A stretch of DNA of 64,000 nt from Flavobacteriaceae bacterium. Lineage in GTDB: Bacteria; Bacteroidota; Bacteroidia; Flavobacteriales; Flavobacteriaceae. Below, piece after piece: positions 25,844 through 60,101 of the stretch. A program made the translations under genes and the position numbers. The notes under the pieces are model-generated. The model saw nothing but the letters and a program-made list of their open reading frames with translations. It had not been told where the DNA came from and did no database searches. Within the stretch, counting starts at the first letter, position 1, and each line of letters starts with the position of its first letter. The stretch covers positions 162 to 64,161 of the forward strand of contig PAAD01000042.1 of NCBI GenBank assembly GCA_002698745.1, in the 5' to 3' direction.

Positions 25844-26613
25844 TTTTTAGATTTTGAATGAATCCATTTTAAAAAATTTGGTTCGTTGAATGCATTATTC
25901 CAACTGGCATGACCAACATTTTCATATAAAGTCATTTTGGGGCTACCACCCGATGCTATAATGGCCCTTATCATTTTTAAAGAATGCTTTGGTTGAACAA
26001 CTTTGTCATCAGAACCATGAAAAACCCATACAGAAACTTTATTTGCATATCGTTTTGTTAATGTTGTAATTCCATTTCCACATATTGGAGTAGCAGCAGC
26101 AAACATATCAGGTTTTCTGTATAGTATCTCAAAAGTTCCCATTCCACCCATAGAAATTCCGCTCACATAAACTTTTTGTTTGTTAACTTGTTTTTTTTTA
26201 ATAAACGAATCCATTAACTTTATTACAAGCCCGAGACTTTTAGTGGGATTAGTTGGTTTATTTTTAAAGTTATTGTTCCATTCATTATCTGACGTTAAAC
26301 TCGGCCAGCGGTCATTGATTGGGCATTGAGGTAAGATTACCCAAGACTTATAGATTTTTCTATTTTCTTTTTTTAGAAATAGATTATCTACATAAGTTAA
26401 TTGAGATGTGTTATCAGAACCTCTCTCTCCAGCACCATGCAAAAATAAATGGACAGGATATTGCAGATTTGGATTATAATCTAAGGGCTTAAGAATTCTG
26501 TAATTAAGTGTGTCATTTTCATATACAAAAATCTCTTTCTCAAATAACTCAAGGCTTTGAGCATTTAAATAAATTACTGAAAAGAAAAAAATATTAAGTA
26601 AAAAATACCTCAT
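25840..26613 (-). CDS. Secreted alpha/beta-hydrolase esterase (COG4099-like 'predicted peptidase'/carboxylesterase); candidate glycan deacylase
   Basis: Signal peptide; 'LFLHGAGERGSDN'; nucleophile elbow 'GISMGGMGT'; 'HGSDDKVV'; 'VGHASW'. Together these give a Ser-Asp-His triad. Confidence 0.75.
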   Translation of the reverse strand: MRYFLLNIFFFSVIYLNAQSLELFEKEIFVYENDTLNYRILKPLDYNPNLQYPVHLFLHGAGERGSDNTSQLTYVDNLFLKKENRKIYKSWVILPQCPINDRWPSLTSDNEWNNNFKNKPTNPTKSLGLVIKLMDSFIKKKQVNKQKVYVSGISMGGMGTFEILYRKPDMFAAATPICGNGITTLTKRYANKVSVWVFHGSDDKVVQPKHSLKMIRAIIASGGSPKMTLYENVGHASWNNAFNEPNFLKWIHSKSKK

Positions 26614-26695
26614 AATTTAATTTTAATCGATTGTTAGTGTTTTCCTGTAATACTTAAAAAAAAGTAAAGACCCTTTGTTTCGTTTAAAAGGAGTC

Positions 26696-26719
26696 AACAC
26701 TAATACATGAATTAGTGTT
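26696..26719 (-). other. Perfect 9-bp inverted repeat (AACACTAAT-N6-ATTAGTGTT) in the 122-bp gap between GH92 and the esterase
   Basis: Read directly from the sequence. No strong U-run follows on the minus strand. TTAGTGTTTT also recurs at 26634-26643. Confidence 0.35.
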
Positions 26720-26735
26720 TTATAAAATTGTTGTT

Positions 26736-28997: not shown

Positions 28998-29007
28998 GTT
29001 TTAATTT

Positions 29008-31137: not shown

Positions 31138-31143
31138 AATCGT

Positions 31144-32898: not shown

Positions 32899-32907
32899 GA
32901 CTTTTAA

Positions 32908-34110
32908 TTAATCTACTCCACCCCAAAATGATAATTCGCCAATAACTGTAACCATTTGATTGTTCCATGACTCATCATTAACAAACCTTATATATTTAAC
33001 CTTTTTTTGTCTCGAGTTTAACCCAAATACAAAATCCTCACCGTTATCCTGAAATAAATAATCTTCTTCTGTATTAGATCCTGGAGGTAAACCAGATGGT
33101 TTGAATGACTCAAATTCTCCTAAAAAAATCCACCCATCACCAGGATTATTTGGATCATAAATTGGAAGGTTATCTAAATTTTCTCTGCCAAAAATTCTAA
33201 ACTTCTTAGGATTTCCGTGTTTGTAGAGTTCGCTTCCACCCCTTTGGTAAAGTTTAAATCTATTTAACTTTACTGACTGTCCAAGATCCATTGTGAGTTG
33301 GTGGGGTAGTGGTAAAAATTTTGTGTGACCACAATTCCATTGATTACTCCATGAACCATCCCATATTTGATTTGCAGAAAATCCATATTCGCTAAAACTT
33401 TCATCACCTGGCATTGAAACAATGGAAAAAAACTCTTTTTCTAAAAACTTATCTTCAAGTGGTGTAATTTCAAATGTTCTACGTTCGGTTTGATTTTCCC
33501 ACCTATCTTCGACATATATTATAAATTTAGTTGGTATTGCATCATAACCCCTAAAACTGTAAGAACTTTCCGCTTGACTTGTATAAAAAGATTCTTTAAA
33601 AACAATATCACCACTAGTGTTTTCGATTGACATATTTAATGATACTTTCGCTCTTGTTGGGTTTTTATATTTGATATTTATTCCACCAAAATCTTGCTCC
33701 CCTTGAAAAGATTCTAATATTGCATGTATTGGAGATTCAAGTGGAGTGATTGTTACATTCTCGGCTTCTGATTCGTTATTGCCCAGGTCATAAGCGGAAA
33801 CTTTAACTTGAAAACTGCCTGTTTTCCCGAATCCATCAATATTTAAACTGTCAATATAACCAGATACAATTACTTCCTTTTCAATGTTTTTTTCATTTTT
33901 GTATTTACCACTTACATACAATAAGTCTTCGTCACTTGGAGGTGTAAAATTTATAACTGCCCCTCCGGGCTTATTTACAACAGAATTAATAATAACTTTA
34001 CCAGGAGGTGTTCCATCAGAGCCATATGCTTCATGATTGTCTTCACTACATGATGTTAATACAAATAGTGTTACATAAATATAATTCTTATAGTTTTTGT
34101 ATTTATTCAT
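32908..34110 (-). CDS. DUF4959/DUF5000-type surface lipoprotein with discoidin-like C-terminus (paralog of 13515-14690)
   Basis: Lipobox 'LTSCSEDNHE'. Shared blocks are 'NKPGGAVINFTPPSDEDLLYVSGKY', 'PHQLTMDLGQSVKLNRFKLYQR' and 'VKYIRFV'. Confidence 0.75.
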   Translation of the reverse strand: MNKYKNYKNYIYVTLFVLTSCSEDNHEAYGSDGTPPGKVIINSVVNKPGGAVINFTPPSDEDLLYVSGKYKNEKNIEKEVIVSGYIDSLNIDGFGKTGSFQVKVSAYDLGNNESEAENVTITPLESPIHAILESFQGEQDFGGINIKYKNPTRAKVSLNMSIENTSGDIVFKESFYTSQAESSYSFRGYDAIPTKFIIYVEDRWENQTERRTFEITPLEDKFLEKEFFSIVSMPGDESFSEYGFSANQIWDGSWSNQWNCGHTKFLPLPHQLTMDLGQSVKLNRFKLYQRGGSELYKHGNPKKFRIFGRENLDNLPIYDPNNPGDGWIFLGEFESFKPSGLPPGSNTEEDYLFQDNGEDFVFGLNSRQKKVKYIRFVNDESWNNQMVTVIGELSFWGGVD

Positions 34111-34120
34111 ATTATAATTT

Positions 34121-36064
34121 TTACCAGCCTGGATTCTGTATTAATTTGGGATTACGTAACAATTCATTTTGACTTATTGGCCACAAATAATCTTTAACTA
34201 AAAAATTTCTATAAAATATATTTTCTACTTCATAAAAACTCTCGACATCTGATTTGAAAATATCCCATCCTTGTATTGGTTTACTAAAATATTCATCTGC
34301 AAGCTTCCATCTTCTCAAATCCCAATATCTGTGCCCTTCTAAAGCCAGCTCAATCATTCTTTCTTGATGTATTATTTTTCTCATCCCTTCCTTAGTTAGT
34401 GGTTTTGATGGATTATTTGAAAATTTGTTCCATGTATTAACCAAATCACCGTCTTTATCAAGGCCTGCCCTTGTTCTAACTTTTTGGATATGTTCATATA
34501 CTTCACTATCTGGAGTGCCTTTTACTTCATTTAATGCTTCAGAATACATTAAATATAAATCGGATAGTCTTATAATAGGAAATGAATAACCCTGAATTGT
34601 TGAGCCTTCAACAGATATGATATTTTCATAATGTACCAATTTTTTAGCAAAATAACCTGTAATTGAGTATATCTCGAATCCCTGTTTTCCTGAAAGTGCT
34701 CCTGCTTTAGCGTCAAGATGTGGTATCAAGTTAATGTTTTCTGTTTCAAGTGAAAACCATTTTCCACCATCAAAACCAATTGAAGAATAAAACCTGGGTT
34801 CCCTGTAGGTATGAAGTTTAGATGTATAATAATTGTCTTCGATATAAAACTCATGATAGTTCTCATTTGAATTATCTAAAATTGGTGTTTGCACCACATC
34901 ATATTTATTGTCATAACCCCAAAGCTTATCTTCATAAATTGGCACACCATTATTAGAATAAAAAGTCTCGACCATATTTAAAGTTGGCGCATGAGATTTT
35001 TTTGTGTAACCAAACAATGCAGAGTGATCTGCAGTCCACCTGGGCTGACACCACATTTGAAGATCACCGGTCCATTCTGGACCATATGCCCAAACAATTT
35101 CTGTATTAAATGGTTCTGTTATAGCTGCCCTTAGACTTAATTCTCTTGTAATTTCCTCATTTATTCCACCTACAATAGGAATTTGTTTATTAAAGTTATA
35201 GAGCTTATGCCCATTTGATTCTGCACTTTCTATAGCCTCTTTTAAAGCTTTACTTGCTAAAACCCACTTTTGAGGGTCATAATTTTGGTTTACAAGATTA
35301 TTACCATCACTTCCTATTAGTTCGTTAAAATCAGTATTTCCATTAAAAATTGGACTAGCGGATAGCACTAAAATTTTTGCTTTTAATGCTTTTGCCACTG
35401 GCATTGTTATTCTTCCAGACTCAGTATATATATAGTTTATTATTCCAGGTAAATTATTGTCATTAATTACCTCATCTAACAATCCAGTAATATATGATAC
35501 AATATTGTCAATTGACTTTCTTTCTACATATGTGTTTTCTGAACTATTACCGACATCTATGTTATCTTTTACAATTGGAATTGGGCCGTACATCTGCATT
35601 AACCAAAAATGATAAAATGCTTTTAATACTTTAGCCTCATCGATCCAACGAAGGCGCTCTTCCTCTTCAAGTCCAGGAACATTAACTAAATTTTTTATAA
35701 AAATATTACAATCTCTTAGTGCAACAAACAAACTATGTGGGGCACCTCTTCCACCGTCCCAGTAATTTAAATATGGACTTGATGAATTTTGCATTCCTTT
35801 AGCAAGACGAAAACTAGTTTCGTTATTCATATAAAAATCATTTTCAGCATAGTACCAAACTTCATCGCCTGCCAACAATGAAAAATTCTGAATAACATTT
35901 GCATGCTCAGGAATATATGTGTAACAAGTAGCCAAGAAATTTTCAGCACTTGACCTTGTATTAAATGCTAACTCAATGGTGGCAATATTATCTGGAACTA
36001 CATCTAAGTAGTCTTTTTGGCATGAACACAAAATGAAAAATAAAATCAAAAAATATTTCCTCAT
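34121..36064 (-). CDS. susD: SusD/RagB-family nutrient-binding outer-membrane lipoprotein
   Basis: Lipobox 'ILCSCQKDYLDVVPD' and the C-terminal block 'ERMIELALEGHRYWDLRRW...IQNPGW'. Confidence 0.95.
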   Translation of the reverse strand: MRKYFLILFFILCSCQKDYLDVVPDNIATIELAFNTRSSAENFLATCYTYIPEHANVIQNFSLLAGDEVWYYAENDFYMNNETSFRLAKGMQNSSSPYLNYWDGGRGAPHSLFVALRDCNIFIKNLVNVPGLEEEERLRWIDEAKVLKAFYHFWLMQMYGPIPIVKDNIDVGNSSENTYVERKSIDNIVSYITGLLDEVINDNNLPGIINYIYTESGRITMPVAKALKAKILVLSASPIFNGNTDFNELIGSDGNNLVNQNYDPQKWVLASKALKEAIESAESNGHKLYNFNKQIPIVGGINEEITRELSLRAAITEPFNTEIVWAYGPEWTGDLQMWCQPRWTADHSALFGYTKKSHAPTLNMVETFYSNNGVPIYEDKLWGYDNKYDVVQTPILDNSNENYHEFYIEDNYYTSKLHTYREPRFYSSIGFDGGKWFSLETENINLIPHLDAKAGALSGKQGFEIYSITGYFAKKLVHYENIISVEGSTIQGYSFPIIRLSDLYLMYSEALNEVKGTPDSEVYEHIQKVRTRAGLDKDGDLVNTWNKFSNNPSKPLTKEGMRKIIHQERMIELALEGHRYWDLRRWKLADEYFSKPIQGWDIFKSDVESFYEVENIFYRNFLVKDYLWPISQNELLRNPKLIQNPGW

Positions 36065-36074
36065 AATCTATTTT

Positions 36075-39000
36075 TTAAAAATTAAGATTAATACCAAAAT
36101 TAATTCCAAGTTGAATGGGGTATCCAAGTCCATTTCCACCCATCTCAACATCCCAAATTTTAAATTTACTGAATGTTAATAAATTAGTACCTGTAAAATA
36201 TAATCGTGCATTACTAAGTTTGAGTTTTGATGTAAAATTATTATTGACTGAGTAACCTATTTCAACAGATTTTAATCTTAAAAAAGTCCCATCTCTTAGC
36301 CACCATGTGCTGTTTCTGTTATTATTATCAATTAGTTGATCTGATAGTCTTGGCCAGGCTGCATATAGATTTCTATCATTTTCAGACCAATGGTTATTTG
36401 CCCAAGCTTTTAAAAGCGCATTGTTACCAATAGCTCCACCATATGTATCAATAAAAGGTGAGGAATTATATGCATCTATAAAAAATGAAGATTGAGCTGA
36501 GCCTTGAAAGAAAAAAGAAAAATCAACTTTCTTATATGAAGCAGACATCCCGAAGCCATATATAATTTTAGGAGTTGTGGGATAACCAATAGGAACTTCA
36601 TCATTGATATCTATTATTCCGTCGTTATTAATGTCTTTGTACTTTATATCACCAGGCATATAATCTCCAAAAGTTTGCAAGGGGGAATTTGAAATATCAG
36701 CTTCGTCAATAAACAGTCTTTCTGCAATGTAACCATAGGGTTGTGATAGATTTAGTCCAATTCTAGAACGCCAAGGCAATCCAGCTGTAACATAATCCAA
36801 TTCCTCATAAACTTCATATTTGCTATCTGCATAAGAGAAGTTAGCTCTCAACCCCAAGAATAAATCTTTTCCGATATTATTTTTATAGTCTAATGTAAAT
36901 TCATAGCCACTTGAAGATGCTTCTCCGACATTTGCTCTTACAGGAGCTTGAAGACCCATCGTTGAAGGAATTTGAGCTCTGTCCATAAGAATATTTGATC
37001 TTTTTTCAGTAAAATAATCTGCTTGAATTTCAATGTTGTTAAATAAATTCAATTCGACACCTAAGTTTAACATCTTGGCTTTTTCCCAAGTAATTTGATC
37101 ATTAGCATATCTATTAATACTAACTCCATTGGTGTAATTTCCAAATTCAATTCCAAATGGCGCCCCTAGTGAACCGTCATTTAAATTAACCTGCGAAATA
37201 TAAAAAAATCTATCACTTGAGCTTCCTATCTGATCATTACCAACTATTCCATAAGTGGCTTTTAATTTTAATTTAGATATAACTCTTTCATATTTTTTCA
37301 TAAACTGTTCGTTTGACACAAACCAGCCTAAACCAAAAGAGGGGAAAAATCCAAACCTCTCTGATTTTGCAAATCTTTCCGAACCATTATAACCAAAATT
37401 AAGTTCTGTAAAATATTTCTCATCATAAGCATATGTAAATCTGCCAGAAACCCCAAGGTTTCTAAATGGAAGAGAGCTTTGTAAATTACCAGCATTGGCA
37501 TTTTTAAGTTCTCTCATAATACCAATGATCATTCCGCTAACCTCATGCTTTTTATTAAAAGTCTTGTTGTAGTTTATTGCTCCCTCAAAATATGTAGAAT
37601 TATTAATGATTTTATTACCCTCACTATATTCAAGGTACTCTGTTCCTTGGTTTGGGTTTAATGCAACCAGTGTGTAGGAATCACTTTGAAAGTCATAATT
37701 GCCAAGTGAATAATAAAATGGATTGTATTTTCTCTCAAGGTTGTAAAAAGAATACCTTGATGTATTCCCTAGAAATCTTAATTTTAAGCCATCAGCCATA
37801 AAGCTTAAATCTTGTTTTATTTCAACTGTTGCCAAAAAATTATTGTAACTCTCATCTTTATATCCCCTCATGAGGTCAGCATAAGGATTTAGGTAGTCTC
37901 CAAATTGTCCAAAATTTCCGTAAAGTGCATGAGTTGAGTTTTGAAATTGACTATCAGGCTCATATATCTTAGGGTATAATACAGGATTAGCTTTCATTGC
38001 CTTTTCATATACTTGAGTCCCCCCATCCAAAGGTCCAATATAATCATCAAAGTTTCCATTAAACTTCAAAGCTACCTTTGTAGTTTCAGTAAGATTAACA
38101 TCTATATTTGATCGAAGTGAAACTCTATTAAATTTGATATTATTATTAAAATTATTTCTCGGATCAACTTTTAAATTTCCATTATCAGTATTAATTGTGC
38201 TTGCCAAATAGTATCTAGCGATTTTACCACCACCACTAAGATTAAAATTAAAGCGACTATTTAAAGTGTAATCATCCAATAGCTCATCAAACCAATTTAC
38301 TGTTGGATATGCCATTAAGTTTCTATTTGGGTCTTGCGAGATTAGTATTTTTTCCTGTGAATAGATTCTCCCGCTCAAAGGGTTCCTTGTTGTCAATGCC
38401 TCGTTATGTAACCTCATGTAAGTAATGGGGTCGGCTATTTGCAATGATTTTGTTGGCGCAGAGTATGATTTTTCATACCTAACATTTATTTTGACTACCC
38501 CCTCAATACCTACTTTGGTTGTTACCAAAATAACTCCATTTGCTCCGCGAGCACCATATAATGATGTTGCTGTAGCATCTTTCATTATTGAAAAACTAGC
38601 AATATCGTCAGGTTGTAATCTAGCAAGGTCTGTGGATGTTGTTTCAATACCGTCAATAAGAATAAGAGGTGATCTAGCATAGCCAAACGTACTTACTCCT
38701 CTTATAAAAAATTCAGCGTTATCTCTTCCTGGCTCACCACTTCTTTGATAGGCAATTACTCCTGCAATTCTTCCAGCAAGTGAAGTTGTTAGATTACTTG
38801 TGGGAACTCTAAGTTCTTCAGGATTGATTGAAGTTACCGCGGCAATAACACTAGACTTTTTTTGTTGTCCATAGGCTACAATTGTAACCTCATCAAGCGT
38901 GTTTAAATTTTCAACTAGTTTAATCTCCAAAAATCTATCATTTTTGATTGTAATTAATTCAGTTTTAAAACCAACATAGCTAACCTCTAGTCTTGATCCA

Positions 39001-39191
39001 ATATTAATGGATATGGAAAATTTTCCATCAAAATCACTAATTGTTCCGTTGGTTGTACTATTCTTTTCAATGATGTTAGCCCCAACAACTGGTACATTTT
39101 CATTGTCTAAAACAATTCCATTAACCATCAATTTTTGAGAAAAACAATGGAGTCCAATAAGTATTAAGAGATAATTAAATCTACATTTCAA
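36075..39191 (-). CDS. susC: SusC/RagA-family TonB-dependent outer-membrane transporter
   Basis: 1038 aa with a TTG start. 'YQRSGEPGRDNAEFFIRGVSTFG' and 'NFGYNGSERFAKSERFGFFPS' are present. It is clearly paralogous to 8478-11594 and has no STN domain. Confidence 0.95.
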   Translation of the reverse strand: MKCRFNYLLILIGLHCFSQKLMVNGIVLDNENVPVVGANIIEKNSTTNGTISDFDGKFSISINIGSRLEVSYVGFKTELITIKNDRFLEIKLVENLNTLDEVTIVAYGQQKKSSVIAAVTSINPEELRVPTSNLTTSLAGRIAGVIAYQRSGEPGRDNAEFFIRGVSTFGYARSPLILIDGIETTSTDLARLQPDDIASFSIMKDATATSLYGARGANGVILVTTKVGIEGVVKINVRYEKSYSAPTKSLQIADPITYMRLHNEALTTRNPLSGRIYSQEKILISQDPNRNLMAYPTVNWFDELLDDYTLNSRFNFNLSGGGKIARYYLASTINTDNGNLKVDPRNNFNNNIKFNRVSLRSNIDVNLTETTKVALKFNGNFDDYIGPLDGGTQVYEKAMKANPVLYPKIYEPDSQFQNSTHALYGNFGQFGDYLNPYADLMRGYKDESYNNFLATVEIKQDLSFMADGLKLRFLGNTSRYSFYNLERKYNPFYYSLGNYDFQSDSYTLVALNPNQGTEYLEYSEGNKIINNSTYFEGAINYNKTFNKKHEVSGMIIGIMRELKNANAGNLQSSLPFRNLGVSGRFTYAYDEKYFTELNFGYNGSERFAKSERFGFFPSFGLGWFVSNEQFMKKYERVISKLKLKATYGIVGNDQIGSSSDRFFYISQVNLNDGSLGAPFGIEFGNYTNGVSINRYANDQITWEKAKMLNLGVELNLFNNIEIQADYFTEKRSNILMDRAQIPSTMGLQAPVRANVGEASSSGYEFTLDYKNNIGKDLFLGLRANFSYADSKYEVYEELDYVTAGLPWRSRIGLNLSQPYGYIAERLFIDEADISNSPLQTFGDYMPGDIKYKDINNDGIIDINDEVPIGYPTTPKIIYGFGMSASYKKVDFSFFFQGSAQSSFFIDAYNSSPFIDTYGGAIGNNALLKAWANNHWSENDRNLYAAWPRLSDQLIDNNNRNSTWWLRDGTFLRLKSVEIGYSVNNNFTSKLKLSNARLYFTGTNLLTFSKFKIWDVEMGGNGLGYPIQLGINFGINLNF

Positions 39192-39350
39192 ACGAAAAAG
39201 CTTAAATAAAATGATTTGTTTATATTCAATAAAACTAGCTATTTATTTCGGCTTTATTCAATATTTTGCTTTTTTTTTATATATTTACTCAAATGACCTA
39301 TACATTACATATACAAAGTAAACAAATAGGCTAACTTTTAAAGATCAAAT

Positions 39351-40061
39351 ATGAATAGATTTTTTACTATACTTTTTTTAATCCCTTGTGCAATTTTTGC
39401 TCAGGAAAACATTTCAGTACTTACTGTTGGCTCTAGTGGCTCTATTACAGTTAAATCTGAAGCTAATATTAACCTTGCTGGACTAGAACTGTCTCCAAGC
39501 TCTGATCTTGTTATTTCAGAAACAGACTTAACTAGATCATCAGCTCCTATTGTTTCAGAATATGATGACAGTTCTGTGAGTCGTGTTTATTCCTCAACTA
39601 GTTTAATTTCAAACTTTGTTGGATCTATAACTTTCAATTATAATGATGATGAACTTAACAACCTTATTGAAAGTGTTTTAGTTTTGGAAGTCAAAAATAA
39701 TGATGATTCTTGGACTCCATACTATGGTGTAGCTGATCCCAGTAATAACACTGTTACTGTCAATTTTAACAGTCCACTATCGTTTAATTCAATTACTGCA
39801 AGTCAAGCAGGTAAAACATTAACAATTGAAAACGTCAACTTAGTGGATGGAATTTTAATTTATCCTAACCCTACTGCAAATCAAATTTTCATTCAATATG
39901 ATAATGACTTTAGTGCCCAGCTATTTGATGTGGTTGGTAAAAGGGTTTTATCTACTAATAAAAAAACCATTGATATGAATTCTTTCAGATCGGGTACATA
40001 CATATTAAAACTAACGGATGAACAAAATGAGATTCATTCATTTAAAATTATTAAAAATTAA
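39351..40061 (+). CDS. Small secreted protein of unknown function with T9SS C-terminal sorting domain
   Basis: Signal peptide 'FLIPCAIFAQ' and CTD 'ILIYPNPTANQIFIQ...SGTYILKL...FKIIKN'. It ends 14 nt upstream of the first fibre gene. Confidence 0.75.
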   Translation: MNRFFTILFLIPCAIFAQENISVLTVGSSGSITVKSEANINLAGLELSPSSDLVISETDLTRSSAPIVSEYDDSSVSRVYSSTSLISNFVGSITFNYNDDELNNLIESVLVLEVKNNDDSWTPYYGVADPSNNTVTVNFNSPLSFNSITASQAGKTLTIENVNLVDGILIYPNPTANQIFIQYDNDFSAQLFDVVGKRVLSTNKKTIDMNSFRSGTYILKLTDEQNEIHSFKIIKN

Positions 40062-40075
40062 AAACAACAACAATT

Positions 40076-41512
40076 ATGAAAAATTTTACTTTTATTTTAT
40101 TATCCATATTTGCACTATCATTTTCAAATGTATACGGACAGCCTGCTGACCAAGACAAAAAACCAGCTTTTGTTTTCACAGAAAATGGTAATGGAGATCC
40201 ATTTAATGGACAGATTTACCGATCTACTCTCAGTGGTGCTGCTAGAAATGGCAATGGCAATGACAATGCTCAATTTGGCAACCTTGGGGAATGGTCAGTT
40301 GACATGGTTGTTTCAGAAAAAACAGGTGAACAAGCCGCTAATGATTTTGGACAATTTAAAGATAATACTCACCCCTTATATCAGGGTCAAGACGTCTTGA
40401 CTCAGAATCATGGTGGGCATGGTGCTCTTGGATGGGGGTCTTTTGCAGCTAATGTTTACAATAGAGCAACTGGAACTGGTTCTGTAGCTATGGGCTATAA
40501 TAACATAGCAGGGAATCCTGAAGGCAATGGTAATTTCGGAAAGGACGAGAATAATGGTGGTCAAGCTGTATTTGGAAGAGCATCACGTGCACTTGGCCCT
40601 GTTTCTTTTGCATCTGGCTACAGAAATACTGCAGCTGCACAAACTAGTGTAGCTATGGGTAATTATAATTACGCTACAGGAGATTCTTCAGTTGCAATTG
40701 GAAAAAATAGCTATGCTCAGGGCGCAAGCTCAGTTGCAATTGGATTTCAAAGCCATGCTGCTGGAGGTGGATCAACTGCACTTGGACAAGAAAATATTTC
40801 TTGGGGAACTACAAACTTCACAGCTGGATATCAAAACACTGCTGGAGATACAACTGCAGCAGTTGGTAGTGGAGGAAGCGCCGTAGCAATGGGTAAATAT
40901 AACACTGCTTCAGCTGATGCTTCTATGGCACTGAATAGAGCTACTTCAGCTACTCAACAAGCTGCAACTTCTATGGGTCTTGGAACAACAGCTGACAACG
41001 TAGGTATGTTGGCAATTGGTGTTAATAACGCCGCAGGTTTAGGAGACACTTCTGCAAATTATTACAAGGTAGATGGTAATTTTACAGGCGCTCCAATTGG
41101 GGTAGCATTTGTGATTGGAAATGGTGATATTGATTCTTCAAATGGTAGAGCTGGAGCCAATCCATCTAATGCTTTTATGGTAAAATATGATGGTTCTGCA
41201 ACTTTAGCAGGTGACTTGACAGTAAACTCAGATGCTAGATTAAAATCAAACATTATTTCTCTTGGAAGTACACTTGCAAAACTTATGCAAATTGATGGTA
41301 AGAGTTATACTATGAAATCCAATGAAAAAGAAAATAAAATTGGACTACTCGCTCAAGAAATCATTGAAGTATTTCCAGAACTTGTAAAAGAAGGTGATGA
41401 TAAAAATGGAACAATGTCAGTCAACTATCAAGGACTAATTCCAGTACTTATTAATGCAATTAAAGAACAACAAACTCAAATTGATGAGTTAAAATCTTTG
41501 TTAAATAATTAG
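40076..41512 (+). CDS. Secreted fibre protein: YadA-head/Hep_Hag-like repeats + C-terminal peptidase-S74 intramolecular-chaperone (tail-fibre) domain
   Basis: Sec signal peptide 'FALSFSNVYGQ'. The repeats read 'SVAMGNYNYATGDSSVAIGKNSYAQGASSVAIGFQSHAAGGGSTALGQEN'. The C-terminus is 'SDARLKSNI...IGLLAQEIIEVFPELV...VNYQGLIPVLINAIKEQQ'. Confidence 0.85.
   Translation: MKNFTFILLSIFALSFSNVYGQPADQDKKPAFVFTENGNGDPFNGQIYRSTLSGAARNGNGNDNAQFGNLGEWSVDMVVSEKTGEQAANDFGQFKDNTHPLYQGQDVLTQNHGGHGALGWGSFAANVYNRATGTGSVAMGYNNIAGNPEGNGNFGKDENNGGQAVFGRASRALGPVSFASGYRNTAAAQTSVAMGNYNYATGDSSVAIGKNSYAQGASSVAIGFQSHAAGGGSTALGQENISWGTTNFTAGYQNTAGDTTAAVGSGGSAVAMGKYNTASADASMALNRATSATQQAATSMGLGTTADNVGMLAIGVNNAAGLGDTSANYYKVDGNFTGAPIGVAFVIGNGDIDSSNGRAGANPSNAFMVKYDGSATLAGDLTVNSDARLKSNIISLGSTLAKLMQIDGKSYTMKSNEKENKIGLLAQEIIEVFPELVKEGDDKNGTMSVNYQGLIPVLINAIKEQQTQIDELKSLLNN
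40144..41512 (+). repeat. Copy 1 of a ~1.4-kb duplicated fibre module (partner 43477-44886)
   Basis: The modules are collinear at protein level over the whole mature protein. Nucleotide identity is highest in the core. In a by-eye ungapped comparison, 40531-40850 versus 43881-44200 gives 29 mismatches in 320 nt, including a 48-nt identical run. Confidence 0.9.
41228..41509 (+). other. Peptidase S74 / intramolecular chaperone autoprocessing domain (copy 1)
   Basis: Begins with the conserved 'S-D-x-R-x-K-x-N-I' motif and ends in a coiled-coil-like 'AIKEQQTQIDELK'. Confidence 0.8.
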
Positions 41513-41541
41513 ATTAAGTTTTTTTTTAAATAAATCAAATT

Positions 41542-41573
41542 AATACCCCACTCTAATAAAGTGGGGTATTTTT
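41542..41573 (+). terminator. Rho-independent terminator/attenuator hairpin between the two fibre genes
   Basis: 10-bp perfect stem AATACCCCAC/GTGGGGTATT (41542-41551 / 41561-41570) with a 9-nt loop and a following T-run. It ends 2 nt before the ATG at 41575. Confidence 0.75.
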
Positions 41574-41574
41574 A

Positions 41575-44500
41575 ATGAATATGAAAAAAATTATCTACGT
41601 ATTTATTTTCTTTAGTTGTCATTACTTAGCATCACAAATATATTTTGATAAAATACCTCACGATAAGCAGTTAGTTCCTAGAGATCTAACAACAAATCTT
41701 GGAACGATAAGTATTGAAGGTGAGGCTAGAACAATTGGAAATGACGATTTAGTATATCAAAATTGGGGTAATAATGAACCTAACAATACACCTGCTCCTG
41801 AAAATGTAGCAGAAATTATTAACTCTTCTGGAAATTGGAACGACGCTGATAGTGGAAAATTACAATCCTCATATGTTGAATATGATGGCCTGATCACATC
41901 TCTTGGTGATTTCATTTATTTAGGTCAATACAATGGGCACTCATACTTTAAAAACCCTTTGAATTTAAGTTGGGATCAAGCCAAATTGGCAGCTGAAAAT
42001 GTTGGTGCTTATTTATCCTCACATCAAACTGCGAATGAAAATTCAGTGGTTGCATCATTTGATTATTTTAGAGGATGGATTGGTTTATATCAAGATTTAG
42101 ATGATTCAAATTACACTGAGCCAAATGGAGGTTGGAAATGGGTAGTAGCTAGCAATGAGACTTATGAAAGTTTCGATTCTATGACGGTTAAGCTATACAA
42201 GAATAATAATCTAATTAACTCTTTTGATAACTTATTAAATTACCAAAATGGTGTAGCTCCATTTAACTTTCAAATGAATATAAATTCAGAGCTCTCAAAA
42301 TATTCAGTTAAAATATTTACAAATAAAAACGGATCTCAACAACAAATTGGGGATGTAAACGATATTGTGGCCGGGGATATTTTTGTAATTCAAGGTCAGT
42401 CAAATGCAACTGCACTTGCATATAGTGGATCATCAAATTCGTATTTAAGCGACTATATAAGAGTTTTTTCAGGTGGTCATAGGACTTCATCCGGATTGTT
42501 ATCAGATGTTCAGTGGCACTATGGTCAAGGAGATGGGAATGAGGACTCAAAAGGAAACACCGGACAATGGGGTCTTGTTTTAGCAAAAAAAATGGTAGAT
42601 CAATTAGAAATTCCTATTGCGATTATTAATGGTGCTGATGGCGGCAAGCCTTTATCTTTTTTTCAGGCTCCCTCTGATTATAAATCTTCAACAAACTCAA
42701 ATTACGGTAGGCTTTATTATAGATTAAATGAAATGGGATTAAAAGATGCTGTTCGTGCTGTTTTATGGTCTCAAGGGGAGGCCGATTCATTTCAAAATGG
42801 CCTTAACACAAATGCATATAAAATATCTTTTAATAGTTTAAAAAACTCCTGGTTGACAGATTACAAAAACATTGAAAAAATTTATATTTTTCAAACGAGG
42901 GATTGTGATTGTGGAACAGTTCTAAGTGGAAGACTAAAAATTAAAGAAGCCCAAAGGCAGTTAGCAGATGAGTATGAAAATATTTACATCATGGGTACTT
43001 CTGGTATTACAGTGCACTCTGATAATTGTCATTTTCCATTTTCTTCAGGATACGAGAGCTTTGGACAAAGAATTTTCAAGCCTGTAATGTCACATATTTA
43101 CGGAAATAATTATGAAGAGGAGATTGACCCCCCACACATAGTTTCGGCAAGTTTAACAGATACTCAAACATTAAAAATCGAGACTAATCAAAATTTGTTT
43201 TCAAATACTAATAATACTAATAATTTACTCAGTAAAATTCAGAGCGATTTTGTTTTAACTGACGCAAATGGAGTTACAATTACTTCTTTTAATATTGAAA
43301 ATAAATCATTGGTTTTAGGTCTTAGCGCAAATCCAGGTGCGAATCCAAAAATTTCATTTAATGGAAAATATTCTGGAGTAGAAAATAACATAACAAACTC
43401 TGTTGGCCTTGAAATGGTTTGTTTCAGTTACTTTTCAATTACAGGCGGTAGTGGAGATACTGGTGGTAATGTTTCTGCTGACCAAGACAAAAAACCAGCA
43501 ATAGTATTTGTAGAAAACGGAAATGCAGATCCATTTAACGGGATGATTTACCGATCATCTGTTGGAGGTGCTGCTAGAAATGGTAATGGTAACGATAGTA
43601 CTGGAGAGAATAATTACCGCTTTGGTAATCTTGGAGAGTGGTCTGTTGATTTGACCGTTTCTGAAAAATCTGCTACGCAAGCCTCTGTTGATTTTGGAAA
43701 TTTTAGAGACAATACTCACCCCTTATATCAAGGCCAAGATGTTTTAACTCAAGAGCATGGTGGTATGGGCGCATTGGGATGGGGTTCTTTTAGTGCCAAT
43801 GCATATAATAGATCTTCAGGTACTGGATCCGTTGCTATGGGCTTTCATAATATAGCAGGTACAAATGTAGCTGATAAAGGTAATTTTGGAAGGGACGAGA
43901 ATAATGGTGGTCAAGCTGTATTTGGAAGAGCATCACGTGCAACTGGTCCTGTTTCTTTTGCATCTGGCTATAGAAATACAGCATCTGGAACAGCTAGTGT
44001 AGCTATGGGTAATTACAATTACGCTACGGGAGATTCTTCAATTGCAATTGGAAAAAATAACTATGCTGAGGGCGCAAGCGCTGTTGCAATTGGATTTCAA
44101 AGCCATGCTGCTGGAGGTGGATCAGTAGCTCTTGGACAAGAAAATATTTCTTGGGGAACTACAAACTTTACAGCTGGTTATCAAAATACAGCAGGTGATA
44201 TAAACTCAAACAAAGGAACTGGCGGTAGTGCTACAGCTATCGGTTCAAACACAACTGCTTCTGGAAGAAGCTCATTTACTGCGAATAAAAACACTAGTGC
44301 TTTGAACCAAGCTTCTACAGCACTTGGATTATCAACTGTTTCTGATAACTTTGGAATGTTAGCAATAGGTGTTAATAATTTATCAGGCTTAGGGGATACT
44401 ACAATTGATCCAGAAAACTATGATGGCTACTTTAATATTGATGGCAATTATACAGGTGCCACAGCTGGTATAGCTTTTGTTATTGGAAATGGTGATTTAA

Positions 44501-44886
44501 ATTCATCTAATGGTTTAGCCGGATCAAATTCATCCAATGCATTTATGGTTAAATATGATGGATCTGTAACATTAGCTGGTGATCTTGCTTTAATCTCAGA
44601 TACTAGATTAAAATCAAATATAATTTCGTTAGGAAGCACGTTAGCTAAGCTTCTGCAGATAGACGGTAAGAGCTATACAATGAAGTCTAATGAGAGAGAA
44701 AATAAAATTGGTCTACTAGCTCAGGACGTAGCTAAGGTGCTTCCAGAGCTTGTTAAAAAGTCTGATGATACTGATGGAACATTATCTGTGAACTACCTAG
44801 GTTTAATTCCAGTACTAATCAATGCAATTAAAGAACAACAGAAAGAAATAAAACTACTTAAAAACCGAATTAATGGAAAGATTTAA
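41575..44886 (+). CDS. Secreted multidomain fibre protein: C-type-lectin-like module + SASA (sialate O-acetylesterase-like, SGNH-type) esterase + YadA-head-like repeats + S74 chaperone domain
   Basis: Sec signal peptide. Lectin-like motifs 'NWGNNEPNN...NWNDAD' and 'SWDQAKLAAENVGAYLSS...WIGLYQD...GGWKWV'. Esterase blocks 'FVIQGQSNA', 'LWSQGEAD' and 'SDNCHF'. A 'GGSGDTGGN' linker follows, then a full copy of mature 40076-41512. Confidence 0.85.
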   Translation: MNMKKIIYVFIFFSCHYLASQIYFDKIPHDKQLVPRDLTTNLGTISIEGEARTIGNDDLVYQNWGNNEPNNTPAPENVAEIINSSGNWNDADSGKLQSSYVEYDGLITSLGDFIYLGQYNGHSYFKNPLNLSWDQAKLAAENVGAYLSSHQTANENSVVASFDYFRGWIGLYQDLDDSNYTEPNGGWKWVVASNETYESFDSMTVKLYKNNNLINSFDNLLNYQNGVAPFNFQMNINSELSKYSVKIFTNKNGSQQQIGDVNDIVAGDIFVIQGQSNATALAYSGSSNSYLSDYIRVFSGGHRTSSGLLSDVQWHYGQGDGNEDSKGNTGQWGLVLAKKMVDQLEIPIAIINGADGGKPLSFFQAPSDYKSSTNSNYGRLYYRLNEMGLKDAVRAVLWSQGEADSFQNGLNTNAYKISFNSLKNSWLTDYKNIEKIYIFQTRDCDCGTVLSGRLKIKEAQRQLADEYENIYIMGTSGITVHSDNCHFPFSSGYESFGQRIFKPVMSHIYGNNYEEEIDPPHIVSASLTDTQTLKIETNQNLFSNTNNTNNLLSKIQSDFVLTDANGVTITSFNIENKSLVLGLSANPGANPKISFNGKYSGVENNITNSVGLEMVCFSYFSITGGSGDTGGNVSADQDKKPAIVFVENGNADPFNGMIYRSSVGGAARNGNGNDSTGENNYRFGNLGEWSVDLTVSEKSATQASVDFGNFRDNTHPLYQGQDVLTQEHGGMGALGWGSFSANAYNRSSGTGSVAMGFHNIAGTNVADKGNFGRDENNGGQAVFGRASRATGPVSFASGYRNTASGTASVAMGNYNYATGDSSIAIGKNNYAEGASAVAIGFQSHAAGGGSVALGQENISWGTTNFTAGYQNTAGDINSNKGTGGSATAIGSNTTASGRSSFTANKNTSALNQASTALGLSTVSDNFGMLAIGVNNLSGLGDTTIDPENYDGYFNIDGNYTGATAGIAFVIGNGDLNSSNGLAGSNSSNAFMVKYDGSVTLAGDLALISDTRLKSNIISLGSTLAKLLQIDGKSYTMKSNERENKIGLLAQDVAKVLPELVKKSDDTDGTLSVNYLGLIPVLINAIKEQQKEIKLLKNRINGKI
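41743..42160 (+). other. C-type-lectin-like region with EPN and WND motifs placed N-terminal to the WIGL core (apparent permutation; Cys-free)
   Basis: The motif order in the sequence is W-x3-EPNN ... WND ... then S-W-x2-A ... WIGL ... GGWKW. This is the reverse of the canonical CTLD order. Confidence 0.5.
42340..43105 (+). other. SASA/DUF303-type carbohydrate O-acetylesterase domain
   Basis: 'GQSNA' (Ser codon inside 42394-42405), 'WSQGEAD' and 'DNCHF' (His codon 43030-43032) match the three conserved blocks of the sialate-O-acetylesterase family. Confidence 0.7.
43477..44886 (+). repeat. Copy 2 of the duplicated fibre module (partner 40144-41512)
   Basis: It starts at 'ADQDKKPAIVFVENGNADPFNG', which matches 'ADQDKKPAFVFTENGNGDPFNG' of copy 1. 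The S74 domain spans 44595-44883. Confidence 0.9.
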
Positions 44887-47047
44887 AATTTTAGCTTTTT
44901 TATTTTTTTCATTTGGCTATTTAAATAGTCAGTATAATATTAATTCAAATAAATTATCTTTTGAGGAACGTGCTGAAAAAATAATTTCAAAAATGACATT
45001 AGAGGAAAAAGCCTCTCAAATGTTAAACTCCTCAATTGCTTTATATGATTATGGTCTTGATGAATATAATTGGTGGAATGAATCTTTACATGGAGTGGCT
45101 AGAGCAGGAAAGGCAACCGTTTTTCCTCAAGCTATAGCCCTAGCTGCAACATTTGATACTGATCTTATTGAAAATATAGCAACTGCAATTTCAGATGAGG
45201 CCAGAGCAATGTATAATATTTCCCAAAAAAGGGGAATGAAAGGTCAATATTCTGGCTTAACATTTTGGTCGCCAAACGTTAATATATTTAGAGATCCAAG
45301 ATGGGGTAGAGGACAGGAAACTTATGGTGAAGATCCCTTTTTAAGCGGATTAATAGGAAGTGCTTTTGTTAGGGGCTTACAAGGCGGTGATCCAAATTAT
45401 TTAAAAGTCGCTGCATGTGCAAAACATTTTGCTGTTCATTCAGGTCCAGAAGCCGACAGACATCATTTTAATGCTGTTGTTAGTAAGCAAGATTTATATG
45501 AAACTTATTTGCCAGCATTTAAAACACTTGTTGATTCAAATGTTGAAATTGTAATGTGTGCATATAACAGACTTAATGATGAGCCCTGTTGTGGAAGTAA
45601 TGATTTGCTTTCAGGTATTCTAAGAAAAGATTGGGGCTTTAAGGGTCATGTAGTTTCTGATTGTGGTGCGATTAATGATATCAAATCAAATCATAAATTC
45701 ACTTTGACTGATGAGGAGAGCGTAGCTTACGCAATTAAGGGTGGAGTTGATTTAAACTGTGGTAACCTATACAGGAAAATACCAAGTGCAGTAAAAAAGG
45801 GTTTATTAAACGAAAAAGATGTTGATAAGTCATTGAAACGCCTTCTAGTCACTCGCTATAAACTAGGCATGTTTGAAAAAAAAGGTTCTGGCCCATACGA
45901 TCATCTGGGTTCTGAACATATTAATTCCCAAGAAAATAAAGAATTAGCTTATATGGCTGCATCTAAATCTATTGTACTTTTAAAGAATGCTAATAGCGTT
46001 TTGCCGCTCAGTAAAAAACTAAATACAATTTTCGTAACAGGCCCAAATGCAGCAAATATAGACATGGCCATTGGAAATTATAATGGACTGAGCCCTGAAA
46101 TTATTACTCCATTAGAAGGTATTGTTTCAAAAGTTGATTATGGGGTTGCTGTAAAATATAGGTTAGGTGTTGAACTAAATAATCCAAAACCAAACCCATC
46201 ATTTTCTATGATGCATCTTGCTTCATCAAGTGATGCCACAATTGCATTTATGGGTATATCTGCACTTATTGAAGGTGAGGAAGGAGATGCAATTTTATCT
46301 TCAGCAAATGGGGATCGAGATGAAATTTCATTGCCAAAAAATCAAATAAAATATATAAAAGAGCTAAGAAAAAAGACGACTAATAAACCACTAATTCTTG
46401 TGGTTTCATCAGGCTCTGCAATTGATTTAAGTGATGTTGAAGAATTAGTAGATGCAATTATTTATTGCTGGTACCCGGGAGAACAGGGGGGCAGAGCTAT
46501 TGCAGATATTCTTTTTGGTGACATCAATCCAACCGGAAAATTACCAATAACATTACCAAAATCTATCAATCAATTACCTGATTACTATGATTATAGCATG
46601 AACAAAAGGACGTATAAATTTATGGATGATAAGCCTTTGTATCCTTTTGGATATGGTCTTAGTTATTCCAAGATTAAATATTCTGAAATTTCCATGTCAA
46701 GCCCAATTTTTACAGATGATAAAGAAAACATTGCTCAAATAACTCTTACTAATATGAGTGACTATAAAACTGAGGAAGTTGTGCAATTATATGTTAGAGA
46801 TCTGGATGCAGTTTTTAGGGTTCCTAATTCAACCTTGAAAGGCGTAAAAAGAATTAAACTCAATGCTGGAGAAACAAAAACAGTAAAGTTTAAAATTGAT
46901 AAAAAAATATTACAATTTGTTAATAACGATGGTAACTCGGTTTTTGATGCTGGTTTATTTGAAATTAGTATAGGAAACTCATCTCCAGGGCCTAGAAGTT
47001 TAGAATTAGGAGCTAATATAAGTCGATTAAGTTTTACTGTGAATTAA
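44873..47047 (+). CDS. GH3 beta-glucosidase/beta-xylosidase-type exo-glycosidase with Fn3-like C-terminal domain
   Basis: Signal peptide. 'FRDPRWGRGQETYGEDP', 'KHFAVHSGPE' and the nucleophile block 'GHVVSDCGA' are present. The ATG lies 14 nt inside the preceding fibre gene. Confidence 0.9.
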   Translation: MERFKILAFLFFSFGYLNSQYNINSNKLSFEERAEKIISKMTLEEKASQMLNSSIALYDYGLDEYNWWNESLHGVARAGKATVFPQAIALAATFDTDLIENIATAISDEARAMYNISQKRGMKGQYSGLTFWSPNVNIFRDPRWGRGQETYGEDPFLSGLIGSAFVRGLQGGDPNYLKVAACAKHFAVHSGPEADRHHFNAVVSKQDLYETYLPAFKTLVDSNVEIVMCAYNRLNDEPCCGSNDLLSGILRKDWGFKGHVVSDCGAINDIKSNHKFTLTDEESVAYAIKGGVDLNCGNLYRKIPSAVKKGLLNEKDVDKSLKRLLVTRYKLGMFEKKGSGPYDHLGSEHINSQENKELAYMAASKSIVLLKNANSVLPLSKKLNTIFVTGPNAANIDMAIGNYNGLSPEIITPLEGIVSKVDYGVAVKYRLGVELNNPKPNPSFSMMHLASSSDATIAFMGISALIEGEEGDAILSSANGDRDEISLPKNQIKYIKELRKKTTNKPLILVVSSGSAIDLSDVEELVDAIIYCWYPGEQGGRAIADILFGDINPTGKLPITLPKSINQLPDYYDYSMNKRTYKFMDDKPLYPFGYGLSYSKIKYSEISMSSPIFTDDKENIAQITLTNMSDYKTEEVVQLYVRDLDAVFRVPNSTLKGVKRIKLNAGETKTVKFKIDKKILQFVNNDGNSVFDAGLFEISIGNSSPGPRSLELGANISRLSFTVN

Positions 47048-56338: not shown

Positions 56339-56480
56339 TTAATAAATAAAATATTTAAAGGTGCGACTCAAAAAAAATTATCCAAAACATCCAAAATCAG
56401 ACCATTCAAAATTTATCCTAGTAACTCTTTTAATACAAACCATGTTTAAATTTTAGTATACGCTAAGTAACTTTACAACA

Positions 56481-58010: not shown

Positions 58011-58023
58011 TAAATTTAAAAAA

Positions 58024-60087: not shown

Positions 60088-60101
60088 ATTTTTATAATTA
60101 A

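Follow-up and report, generated by a model that had tools for sequence, protein, structure and literature searches.

What is a pair of genes resembling phage tail fibres doing on a bacterial chromosome, directly beside a polysaccharide utilization locus (PUL)? The pair lies in a 64,000-nucleotide (nt) stretch of a Flavobacteriaceae bacterium (assembly GCA_002698745.1, contig PAAD01000042.1, positions 162 to 64,161 of the forward strand), which we analysed as a whole and refer to as the window. Four open reading frames (ORFs), all on the plus strand and positioned as an initial annotation of this DNA had placed them, form the region of interest: ORF-A, the bare fibre ORF-B, the cargo fibre ORF-C and a GH3 gene (Table 1). 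With slightly better than even confidence, we favour the interpretation that a chromosomal cassette encodes trimeric fibres of the cell's own, similar to phage tail fibres, and is kept beside a GH92-containing, alpha-mannan-type PUL. [quoted passage not shown]

The fibre nature of both proteins is supported by searches with profile hidden Markov models (HMMs), in which Peptidase_S74, SASA, Lectin_C and YadA_head all scored above the curated Pfam thresholds. ORF-B consists of a signal peptide (amino acids [aa] 1–21), a conserved N-region (aa ~24–135, i.e., ~110 aa conserved behind the signal peptide), YadA-head-like repeats (aa ~136–330), a stalk up to aa 384 and an S74 intramolecular chaperone (aa 385–478). 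The initial annotation had read this ORF as a Sec signal, YadA-head repeats and a C-terminal "SDARLK" domain, and that reading was confirmed: Peptidase_S74 matched ORF-B at aa 385–438 (E 2.9e-14; 53.5 bits versus a cut-off of 22) and YadA_head (PF05658) matched it above the gathering score (E 4e-10), while the corresponding matches in ORF-C were at aa 1008–1061 for Peptidase_S74 (E 1e-12; 48.4 bits versus 22) and at E 2e-10 for YadA_head. Only ~40 aa of helix-prone sequence follow each S74 match, which is hence the extreme C-terminus of either protein. Sequence searches of the PDB with ORF-B linked the head to BpaC (7o23) and YadA (1p9h), and the S74 domain to a phage long tail fibre tip (6f45). 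Both N-termini are, by inspection, Sec signal peptides of the signal peptidase I (SPI) type. As to other routes to the surface, the earlier statement held up that lipobox, beta-barrel anchor and T9SS C-terminal domain (CTD) are absent from both fibres: ORF-B and ORF-C gave no match to PF18962 (Por_Secre_tail), TIGR04183, the type-B CTD or a control-tested CTD HMM, and none to YadA_anchor at E <= 0.1 in Pfam, with NCBIfam YadA_autotrans reaching 15 bits against a cut-off of 750.

Each S74 domain opens with a Ser-Lys dyad (S385DARLK390 in ORF-B, S1008DTRLK1013 in ORF-C), and the S, D and K of SDxxxK are invariant in 45 diverse members of the wider head-plus-S74 family as well as in six orthologous or paralogous fibre modules. 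Because this motif is the site at which Bd3182 and endosialidase cleave themselves (PMC10769870), ORF-B is predicted to yield a ~363-aa fibre and a released chaperone of 94 aa, and ORF-C a ~987-aa cargo fibre and a 96-aa chaperone. Mature ORF-B aligned with aa 635–1100 of ORF-C at 74% identity over 466 aa, in agreement with the claim that the second gene contains a copy of the first.

In ORF-C, this fibre module follows a signal peptide, a lectin-like region, a SASA esterase, a beta-sandwich and a Gly-rich linker. Its 5' end has two in-frame ATGs (41575 and 41581), the first of which abuts the T-run of the upstream terminator hairpin; the true start is probably the second, because orthologues align from there (MKK...). 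A reading of ORF-C as a lipoprotein (from the string "FFSC") was rejected, because Cys15 is not conserved among orthologues and their signal peptides end in ...(S/A)Q with Gln at +1, the usual SPI pattern in Bacteroidota.

The lectin-like region combines a curated profile match with an unusual order of segments. Lectin_C (PF00059) matched aa 131–203 (E 8e-7; 30.2 bits versus a cut-off of 22.6) and covered profile positions 3–68 of 107, while PDB sequence matches to CD23, conglutinin, SP-D and MBP came in two out-of-order pieces: the long-loop half bearing EPN...WND (aa 45–95) precedes the match to the N-terminal half (aa 130–176, "WIGL"). The arrangement could reflect circular permutation or two partial domains. 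No cysteine occurs between aa 45 and 203, and E68-P69-N70, E76 and W88-N89-D90 are invariant in 40 cargo homologues, marking a putative mannose-type Ca2+/sugar site. For the lectin proposed earlier, the EPN/WND motifs and a Lectin_C score above threshold speak in favour, while the match is both partial and permuted. As a separate observation, the segment (aa ~62–190) recurs at 39–45% identity in giant proteins of Marinoscillum metagenome-assembled genomes (MAGs), one of 2631 aa (L018 5186–13081) and one of >4654 aa with three copies (L020 8285–22249).

For the esterase, the evidence extends from sequence to predicted structure. SASA (PF03629) matched aa 267–502 (E 1e-14; 55 bits versus 24.8), and within the blocks that had been named as GQSN, QGEAD and D..H, the residues G274-Q-S276-N, Q400-G-E402 and H481-x-D483-x-x-H486 proved invariant in the same 40 homologues. 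The AlphaFold2 (AF2) model of the cargo (pLDDT 72) is confident in three parts, namely a beta-sandwich at the N-terminus that is split, the esterase, and another beta-sandwich at the C-terminal end; the esterase lies mostly at pLDDT 70–95. The best Foldseek matches of this model were the CE20 acetylesterase XAC1771 (7kmm, E 5e-19) and mammalian SIAE (8f9p, E 2e-18), followed by CE20 (9ega), AT4G34215 (2apj) and a CE6 acetylxylan esterase (1zmb). With the catalytic Ser, Asp and His conserved, ORF-C is predicted to carry a SASA/CE20-like O-acetylesterase.

This fusion is not confined to the window. The ORF-C family comprises at least 120 full-length clusters at 90% identity (57–99% identical, 989–1130 aa), all with SASA plus S74, and homologues occur on contigs of up to 1.6 Mb. 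Where NCBI gives a label, it is "tail fiber domain-containing protein" of Polaribacter or Flavobacteriaceae, and a Tara MAG protein (MAS68607.1, Flavobacteriaceae bacterium) shares the 90% cluster of ORF-C. A scan of 185,579 GTDB species representatives for lectin-specific motifs returned about a dozen full-length cargo homologues, all from uncultured marine Flavobacteriaceae MAGs or single-amplified genomes (Polaribacter, Formosa and others). As read from these homologues, the lectin-SASA-fibre fusion is a conserved chromosomal family of uncultured marine Flavobacteriaceae.

Gene order links the family to the PUL. Besides the window, 11 loci include upstream DNA (L001, L002/3, L004, L006, L009, L011–L014, L016 and L025), and all of them share its divergent arrangement, with susC-susD-DUF4959-DUF4998(-GH92) on one strand and ORF-A, the bare fibre and the cargo fibre(s) on the other. 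GH92 is present in the flanking PUL wherever enough sequence is visible. Repeated rearrangement has altered the far flank (GH3 pair, DsbD/RNR, carboxylesterase and others) but never the susC flank. The supposed association of the fibres with a PUL thus stands as physical linkage to susC/susD in the window and the 11 loci. As to the cassette being "wedged between PULs", it does abut one PUL, and the other ends 16 kb upstream; a Pfam scan of the window ORFs found no SusC/D downstream of the cassette.

The position of the GH3 gene is less constant. Its 14-nt overlap with the end of ORF-C is as claimed, and the same overlap occurs in L004, L006 and L025, whichever fibre gene is last. Only in six loci, however, do the fibres have a GH3 pair behind them, and GH3 is absent from this place in L001–L003, L011 and L012. 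The description of the fibres as "wired to a GH3" accordingly applies to a sub-clade, relatives having a third fibre or unrelated genes after the SASA fibre; GH3 is a neighbour and a clade-level feature, not a constant member of the cassette.

Comparison of the fibre genes with one another indicated that their stalks do not evolve independently. The DNA repeat shared by ORF-B and ORF-C is direct, with a central 240-nt stretch 87–93% identical and exact runs of up to 49 nt. Within L001, L002, L004, L006, L011 and L014, paralogous stalk modules are 84–99% identical as protein and 88–99.6% as DNA, versus 62–76% for the same modules between genomes. Assembler collapse is an unlikely cause of the near-identity, because several of the contigs concerned are long-read assemblies of 0.5–1.6 Mb. 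In most genomes the modules therefore appear to evolve in concert via gene conversion. Programmed inversion, an idea taken from PMC9881135, was rejected, because the repeats are direct and no inverted repeats occur in the cassette region of the window.

The number of fibres varies from one (L025) through two (window, L006, L011–L014) to three (L001–L004, L016), and L016 may have a fourth cargo gene that starts at 16767 and is cut by the contig end. The third fibre, a type also found in L017, carries on the same stalk a ~690-aa N-terminal lipase-like alpha/beta-hydrolase (weak PGAP1/DUF676/LCAT matches) with a GPSMG nucleophile elbow of the GxSxG form. In L025, the only fibre joins a B-type 5' end to the 3' tail of the last fibre type (D3). 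Varying fibre number, a conserved junction between the last fibre and GH3, and this hybrid show that recombination between the 1.4-kb stalk repeats adds and removes cargo genes.

Between the bare- and cargo-fibre genes, a G+C-rich hairpin followed by a T-run is present in 11/11 loci, with folding free energies of -16.6 to -27.5 kcal/mol and compensatory changes in the stem (ACCCCAC/GTGGGGT, ACCCTGC/GCAGGGT and ACCTTTTTC/GAAAGAGGT). Junctions between two cargo fibres measure 7–10 nt and have no hairpin. The hairpin may terminate transcription in part and so leave more bare than cargo fibre, the case for the window being weaker than that for its relatives.

Two further observations concern the same loci. 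Fibre genes are split into two to four ORFs in L013 (8637–13077), L017 (648–2906) and L027 (7200–7700), which may be pseudogenes or assembly or frameshift errors in the repeated modules. Tyrosine recombinase genes of the Phage_integrase family lie within a few kb of the cassette in L004 (21662–22615) and L022 (6459–7502); the window has none.

Nonsynonymous (dN) and synonymous (dS) divergence between the window and its closest relative, L006, differed from one part of the locus to another, with overall dN/dS below 0.2. Fibre and lectin regions diverged faster (dN 0.18–0.33; i.e., 0.20 for the ORF-B stalk at a dS of 1.9 and 0.33 for the ORF-C lectin region at a dS of 2.0) than SusC and SusD (0.04–0.05; dN 0.040 and 0.048, dS about 1.2) or the GH3 genes (dN 0.07–0.10, dS 0.7–0.9), whereas the SASA core had a dN of 0.046 and a dS of 0.56. 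On these rates, the locus is a recombination mosaic, its stalk and lectin alleles having been exchanged or being fast-diverging, as expected of exposed binding surfaces. ORF-A (39351–40061, compared with L006 7732–8442) stood apart, its dN being 0.015 and its dS 0.11, as against a dS of 0.7–1.2 for flanking genes and at least 1.7 for the adjacent fibre genes; this suggests either very recent exchange of this gene alone or unusual constraint at the nucleotide level.

If the fibres themselves lack a CTD, how might they be connected to the surface? The initial annotation had counted five other proteins with a T9SS CTD in the window, and exactly five were found, one of which is ORF-A, located within the segment then described and immediately upstream of ORF-B. 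ORF-A comprises a signal peptide (aa 1–17, with Q18 at +1), a beta-sandwich N-domain (aa ~18–165) and a type-A CTD (aa 170–236; Por_Secre_tail E 1e-11, TIGR04183 E 6e-12). In its AF2 model (pLDDT 78), the CTD matches those of RemZ (in the SprA translocon), mirolase and PorZ; the N-domain had no Foldseek match at E <= 1e-3.

The ORF-A family has 958 detectable members of ~235 aa, and its partners were analysed in 74 loci with a full-length ORF-A and a downstream ORF. In 56/74 of these, the downstream gene overlaps ORF-A by 4 nt (ATGA). All partner N-termini that were inspected are Sec-signal-like, save for a few internally started or fragmentary ORFs, while the domains behind them form a mosaic: S74 with YadA head, S74 with beta-helix, or non-S74 proteins that combine a phage T7-tail-fibre motif with domains of the Fib_succ_major, Laminin_G, C-type lectin, Ig-like or DUF285 kind. 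Of 63 partner ORFs (44 complete), none matched a CTD HMM that detected 3/3 unrelated CTD proteins and 0/4 negatives, and none of 12 matched Pfam Por_Secre_tail. All partner classes occur beside members of one tight clade of ORF-A (about 60% identity or more). The pattern is that of a constant leader gene and a variable fibre. Such loci in marine metagenomes (L022–L105) include L024 9001–11396, L046 7980–10990 and L075 980–4440. Many partners of different classes also have a similar signal peptide, MKRI[LF]LTLTL..F..P...(S/A)Q, as if recombination swapped everything behind it.

Because a constant CTD-bearing leader is coupled to variable CTD-less fibres, ORF-A is the obvious candidate for a link to the outer surface, as an anchor or as an export adaptor. 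The view that the fibres, which lack a CTD themselves, are displayed by a route distinct from T9SS has become doubtful, because ORF-A carries a CTD and genes of its family are coupled to those of fibre-like proteins that have none. We know of no description of a CTD protein acting as carrier or anchor of CTD-less partners, and we found no relevant report of T9SS co-secretion in the literature.

Taken stepwise, the cassette could operate as follows. After export to the periplasm, the S74 domains would quite likely drive trimerization and afterwards detach by self-cleavage at Ser385 and Ser1008, so that fibres stable to sodium dodecyl sulfate remain. Since the modules are near-identical in most genomes and the hairpin is conserved, the bare fibre might be made in excess and co-assemble with cargo subunits as mixed trimers, or at least share one docking partner with them, a step to which we give somewhat less than an even chance. 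ORF-A would supply the T9SS link as surface anchor or export adaptor, which we put forward tentatively. Whether surface-bound or released, the fibre might then use its lectin to capture a mannose-type algal glycan while the esterase strips O-acetyl groups (and, in relatives, the lipase-like fibre removes other acyls), so as to prepare substrate for SusC/D and GH92 or to aid attachment to diatom-derived material; for this last step the chances seem nearly balanced.

Several points weigh against this scenario. The syntenic loci are not independent observations, because they are orthologous and come from related genomes. The fold of the lectin region is poorly modelled (AF2 pLDDT < 50). In the window, L012 and L016, bare and cargo modules are only 72–75% identical, so mixed trimers are not guaranteed here, although the two cargo fibres of L016 are still 98% identical to each other. 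A test for co-clustering of ORF-A sequences with partner class was negative, and between the window and L006 the identity of ORF-A is 97% beside only about 75% for the fibres, both of which disfavour a specific, co-evolving interface between ORF-A and the fibres. To our knowledge, there is neither a mechanism by which a folded trimer without a CTD would cross the outer membrane of Bacteroidota nor a precedent for piggy-backing on T9SS. As for the substrate, a C6-sulfated alpha-1,3-mannan of diatoms has been linked to GH92-rich PULs in Polaribacter and Formosa (PMC13063451). The one characterized diatom mannan of such PULs has not been reported to be acetylated, and PMC13063451 does not mention acetyl groups; nor did the GH92/mannan PUL papers that we consulted, that one included, mention esterase, lectin, tail fibre or GH3.

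The position next to a PUL might also be nothing but inherited synteny, in which case the fibres would, like those of the MAT family, serve adhesion or attack in general, binding diatoms, particles or cells, with the esterase and lipase remodelling these surfaces. Such a role fits the wider family of head-plus-S74 proteins, for which 200 clusters (50% identity) reach E <= 1e-30, in that 41 of its 45 long members are mainly YadA-head repeats and enzyme cargo is rare among them (SASA in 1/45, PGAP1 in 1/45). Cassettes in which an ORF-A-type gene has other partners are found at a distance from PULs (L022/L023), the lipase-like cargo of the third fibre is not an obvious mannan-degrading activity, the fast divergence of fibre and lectin regions is adhesin-like, and the MAT fibres are themselves adhesins, e.g., Bd3182 (PMC10769870). 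We nevertheless consider this role doubtful: the same susC adjacency is kept in every locus despite several rearrangements of the opposite flank, the lectin motif is of the mannose type and the PUL is GH92-rich, and in one sub-clade the last fibre is translationally coupled to GH3.

A less probable alternative is that the proteins remain in the periplasm, or leave it only in outer-membrane vesicles, the esterase working with a periplasmic GH3 on imported oligosaccharides and the fibre serving as an oligomerization scaffold. An SPI signal as the only sorting feature, with lipobox, CTD and beta-barrel all absent, is what such proteins would show, and the GH3 that overlaps ORF-C likewise has an SPI-type signal. 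Yet lectins, YadA-like head repeats and phage-type fibres have no known periplasmic role, the bare fibre carries no enzyme, the partner ORF-A is addressed to T9SS, the rapid divergence of fibre and lectin suggests exposure to the outside, and GH3 is missing from many cassettes.

The genomic context, finally, is cellular. We compared the 33 window ORFs of at least 120 aa with Pfam; two had no match, and transporters, two PULs, glycosidases, sulfatases and peptidases account for most of the set. It includes no gene for a capsid, baseplate, sheath, portal, terminase or integrase, and the 64 kb contain no tRNA gene. Known phages match ORF-B at its S74 end only and at <45% identity, no phage record covering 80% of it. 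IMG/VR has no relative of the lectin-esterase cargo, and its relatives of the fibre module are distant (<= 49% identity, mostly S74 only), with a few viral fibres matching head plus S74 at 27–31%. PHROG tail-fibre families match head and S74 of both fibres, and none matches ORF-A. Because of these tail-fibre matches on the one hand and the distant viral relatives and non-phage context on the other, we take the fibre module to be a cellular gene of phage-tail-fibre ancestry, and the initial annotation was right to call the genes chromosomal. It is thus very improbable that they are leftovers or working components of a prophage, a tailocin or an extracellular contractile injection system. Phage tail-fibre families do match the S74 end and some of the head, and NCBI names the homologues accordingly; yet no phage structural or integrase gene occurs among the window ORFs of at least 120 aa, at least 11 other species-level loci hold the same chromosomal position, viral fibres come no closer than 49%, IMG/VR includes no cargo relative, and N-terminal Sec signal peptides are atypical of virion proteins.

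We thus retain the interpretation of a PUL-linked cassette of cell-encoded enzyme-display fibres, which may be extended further. ORF-A might represent a "hitch-hiker/anchor" branch of T9SS, in which a constant CTD-bearing leader carries hypervariable, CTD-less, phage-derived trimeric fibres of both the S74 and the non-S74 kind to the flavobacterial surface or docks them there; in the PUL-linked version, gene-converted stalks would allow hetero-trimers of bare, esterase and lipase subunits, with the partial terminator setting their ratio, and the whole would be a programmable enzyme-display fibre. We rate this extension as unlikely, and it would be considerably more interesting if true.

Marine Flavobacteriaceae remineralize a large share of algal polysaccharide, and PULs serve to predict glycan turnover. 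If the favoured interpretation is true, the PUL gains an unrecognized outer layer of self-assembling, phage-derived fibres that present a lectin and acyl-esterases, as opposed to lipoproteins or CTD-tagged enzymes. It would also provide a testable lead on how CTD-less proteins might use T9SS, take the concept of "MAT" fibres that end in S74 and are encoded by the cell beyond the predator Bdellovibrio to heterotrophs abundant in the ocean, and offer a clear natural case of modular cargo swapping on a constant trimerizing stalk, of possible use in protein display engineering.

Table 1. Coordinates of the cassette, its parts and its neighbours in the window, and of the third fibre gene in other loci (columns: feature, position, strand, basis or remark)
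Adjacent PUL, alpha-mannan-type	23546..39191	-	SusC, SusD, DUF4959/DUF5126/DUF5000, DUF4998, three GH92, S9-type esterase
susC/ORF-A intergenic spacer	39192..39350		susC minus, ORF-A plus; presumed divergent promoter site
ORF-A, 236 aa, conserved leader gene of the cassette	39351..40061	+	Por_Secre_tail, TIGR04183
ORF-B, bare fibre, 478 aa	40076..41512	+	YadA_head, Peptidase_S74
Predicted autocleavage motif S385-D-A-R-L-K390 of ORF-B	41228..41245	+	Pfam S74 match from aa 385; Ser-Lys dyad SDxxxK
Intrinsic terminator/attenuator hairpin	41542..41574	+	11-bp G+C-rich stem, then TTTTT; between bare-fibre and cargo-fibre genes
ORF-C, cargo fibre, 1103 aa	41575..44886 (probable start 41581)	+	Lectin_C, SASA, YadA_head, Peptidase_S74
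C-type-lectin-like region, ORF-C aa 45–203	41707..42183	+	Pfam Lectin_C, PDB sequence matches, invariant motifs
SASA/SGNH-type carbohydrate O-acetylesterase domain (predicted), ORF-C aa 267–502	42373..43080	+	Pfam SASA, Foldseek
Fibre module, ORF-C aa 635–1103	43477..44883	+	Direct repeat of mature ORF-B; S1008-D-T-R-L-K1013
S74 chaperone within ORF-C	44596..44883	+	Part of fibre module
GH3 exo-glycosidase, BglX/xylosidase-like, Fn3-like C-terminus	44873..47047	+	Pfam, complete GH3; start 14 nt inside ORF-C end
Third fibre gene, absent from the window	L004 13324–16845; L001 13299–16757; L002 13305–16778; L016 13297–16770		

Elsewhere in the window, three regions deserve mention. The upstream GH5/GH3-CBM6 PUL ends in an 875-aa protein (20702–23329) with CotH kinase, lamin-tail and T9SS CTD domains, an unusual secreted kinase-like protein for a PUL. 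Directly upstream of the susC of the first PUL lies an 846-aa protein (5890–8430) in which Pfam sees the C-terminal T9SS CTD alone, leaving ~780 aa without a Pfam match. In the stretch 54362–61898, a GH120-like beta-helix protein is encoded together with two S1 sulfatases and a GHL6/fucosidase-like protein; no SusC/D accompanies this cluster in the window, and it may form part of a pathway for sulfated glycans that is related to the GH92 PUL.

Among known systems, several share single traits with the cassette. Like phage endosialidases and tail fibres (K1F endoNF, T5 pb1 and T4-like long tail fibre tips; PF13884), ORF-B and ORF-C have a C-terminal S74 domain with SDxxxK, match 6f45 and many PHROG families, and follow the enzyme-on-fibre principle of esterase and depolymerase tailspikes; in contrast, they have signal peptides, are chromosomal, lack a virion-attachment domain and share <= 49% identity with viral proteins, mostly in S74. 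Trimeric autotransporter adhesins (YadA, BpaC) have the same left-handed beta-roll repeats of the YadA_head type, to which the PDB head matches belong, but ORF-B and ORF-C are not of that class, because the YadA_anchor barrel is absent; an S74 chaperone occupies the C-terminus instead. The esterase shares fold and catalytic motifs (GQSN Ser, DxxH) with SASA/CE6/CE20 enzymes such as XAC1771 and mammalian SIAE at a sequence identity of only 13–19%, and differs from them in being fused to a lectin-like region and a fibre. With respect to T9SS type-A cargo, ORF-A has a bona fide type-A CTD whereas the fibres have none. The literature we searched did not link Peptidase_S74, intramolecular chaperones or "tail fiber domain-containing protein" to cell fibres of Bacteroidota.

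The most complete parallel is the MAT family of B. bacteriovorus, 21 cell-encoded fibres with signal peptides on the surface of the predator (Caulton et al. 2024, PMC10769870), of which 13/21 end in a self-cleaving S74 domain and eight in other tips, including one C-type-lectin fold. These adhesins provide a precedent for cell-encoded S74 fibres with demonstrated self-cleavage, so that the initial assertion that no such architecture had been characterized goes too far. What does appear to be new, as measured against the accessible part of that report, is the N-terminal enzyme cargo, the Bacteroidota and PUL context and a CTD protein as partner, none of which is described there. MAT binding domains sit at the C-terminal tip, whereas the lectin and enzyme cargo here is N-terminal to the fibre; MATs carry their own ~130-aa beta-rich N-domain behind the signal peptide, in place of which a separate T9SS-CTD protein is encoded upstream here; no enzyme-bearing MAT is described in that part of the report; and the setting there is predation by Bdellovibrionota, as opposed to a PUL of Bacteroidota and a YadA-head stalk. 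Both systems nonetheless consist of cell-encoded fibres of phage-tailspike ancestry with an N-terminal signal peptide, many of them ending in S74 with SDxxxK (the trimer being predicted in our case), both are mosaic families, with a C-type-lectin fold in the one and a C-type-lectin-like region in the other, and the partners of ORF-A mirror the split between S74 and non-S74 ends. On this comparison, the MAT fibres are the closest characterized kind, and ORF-B and ORF-C would be their Bacteroidota counterpart.

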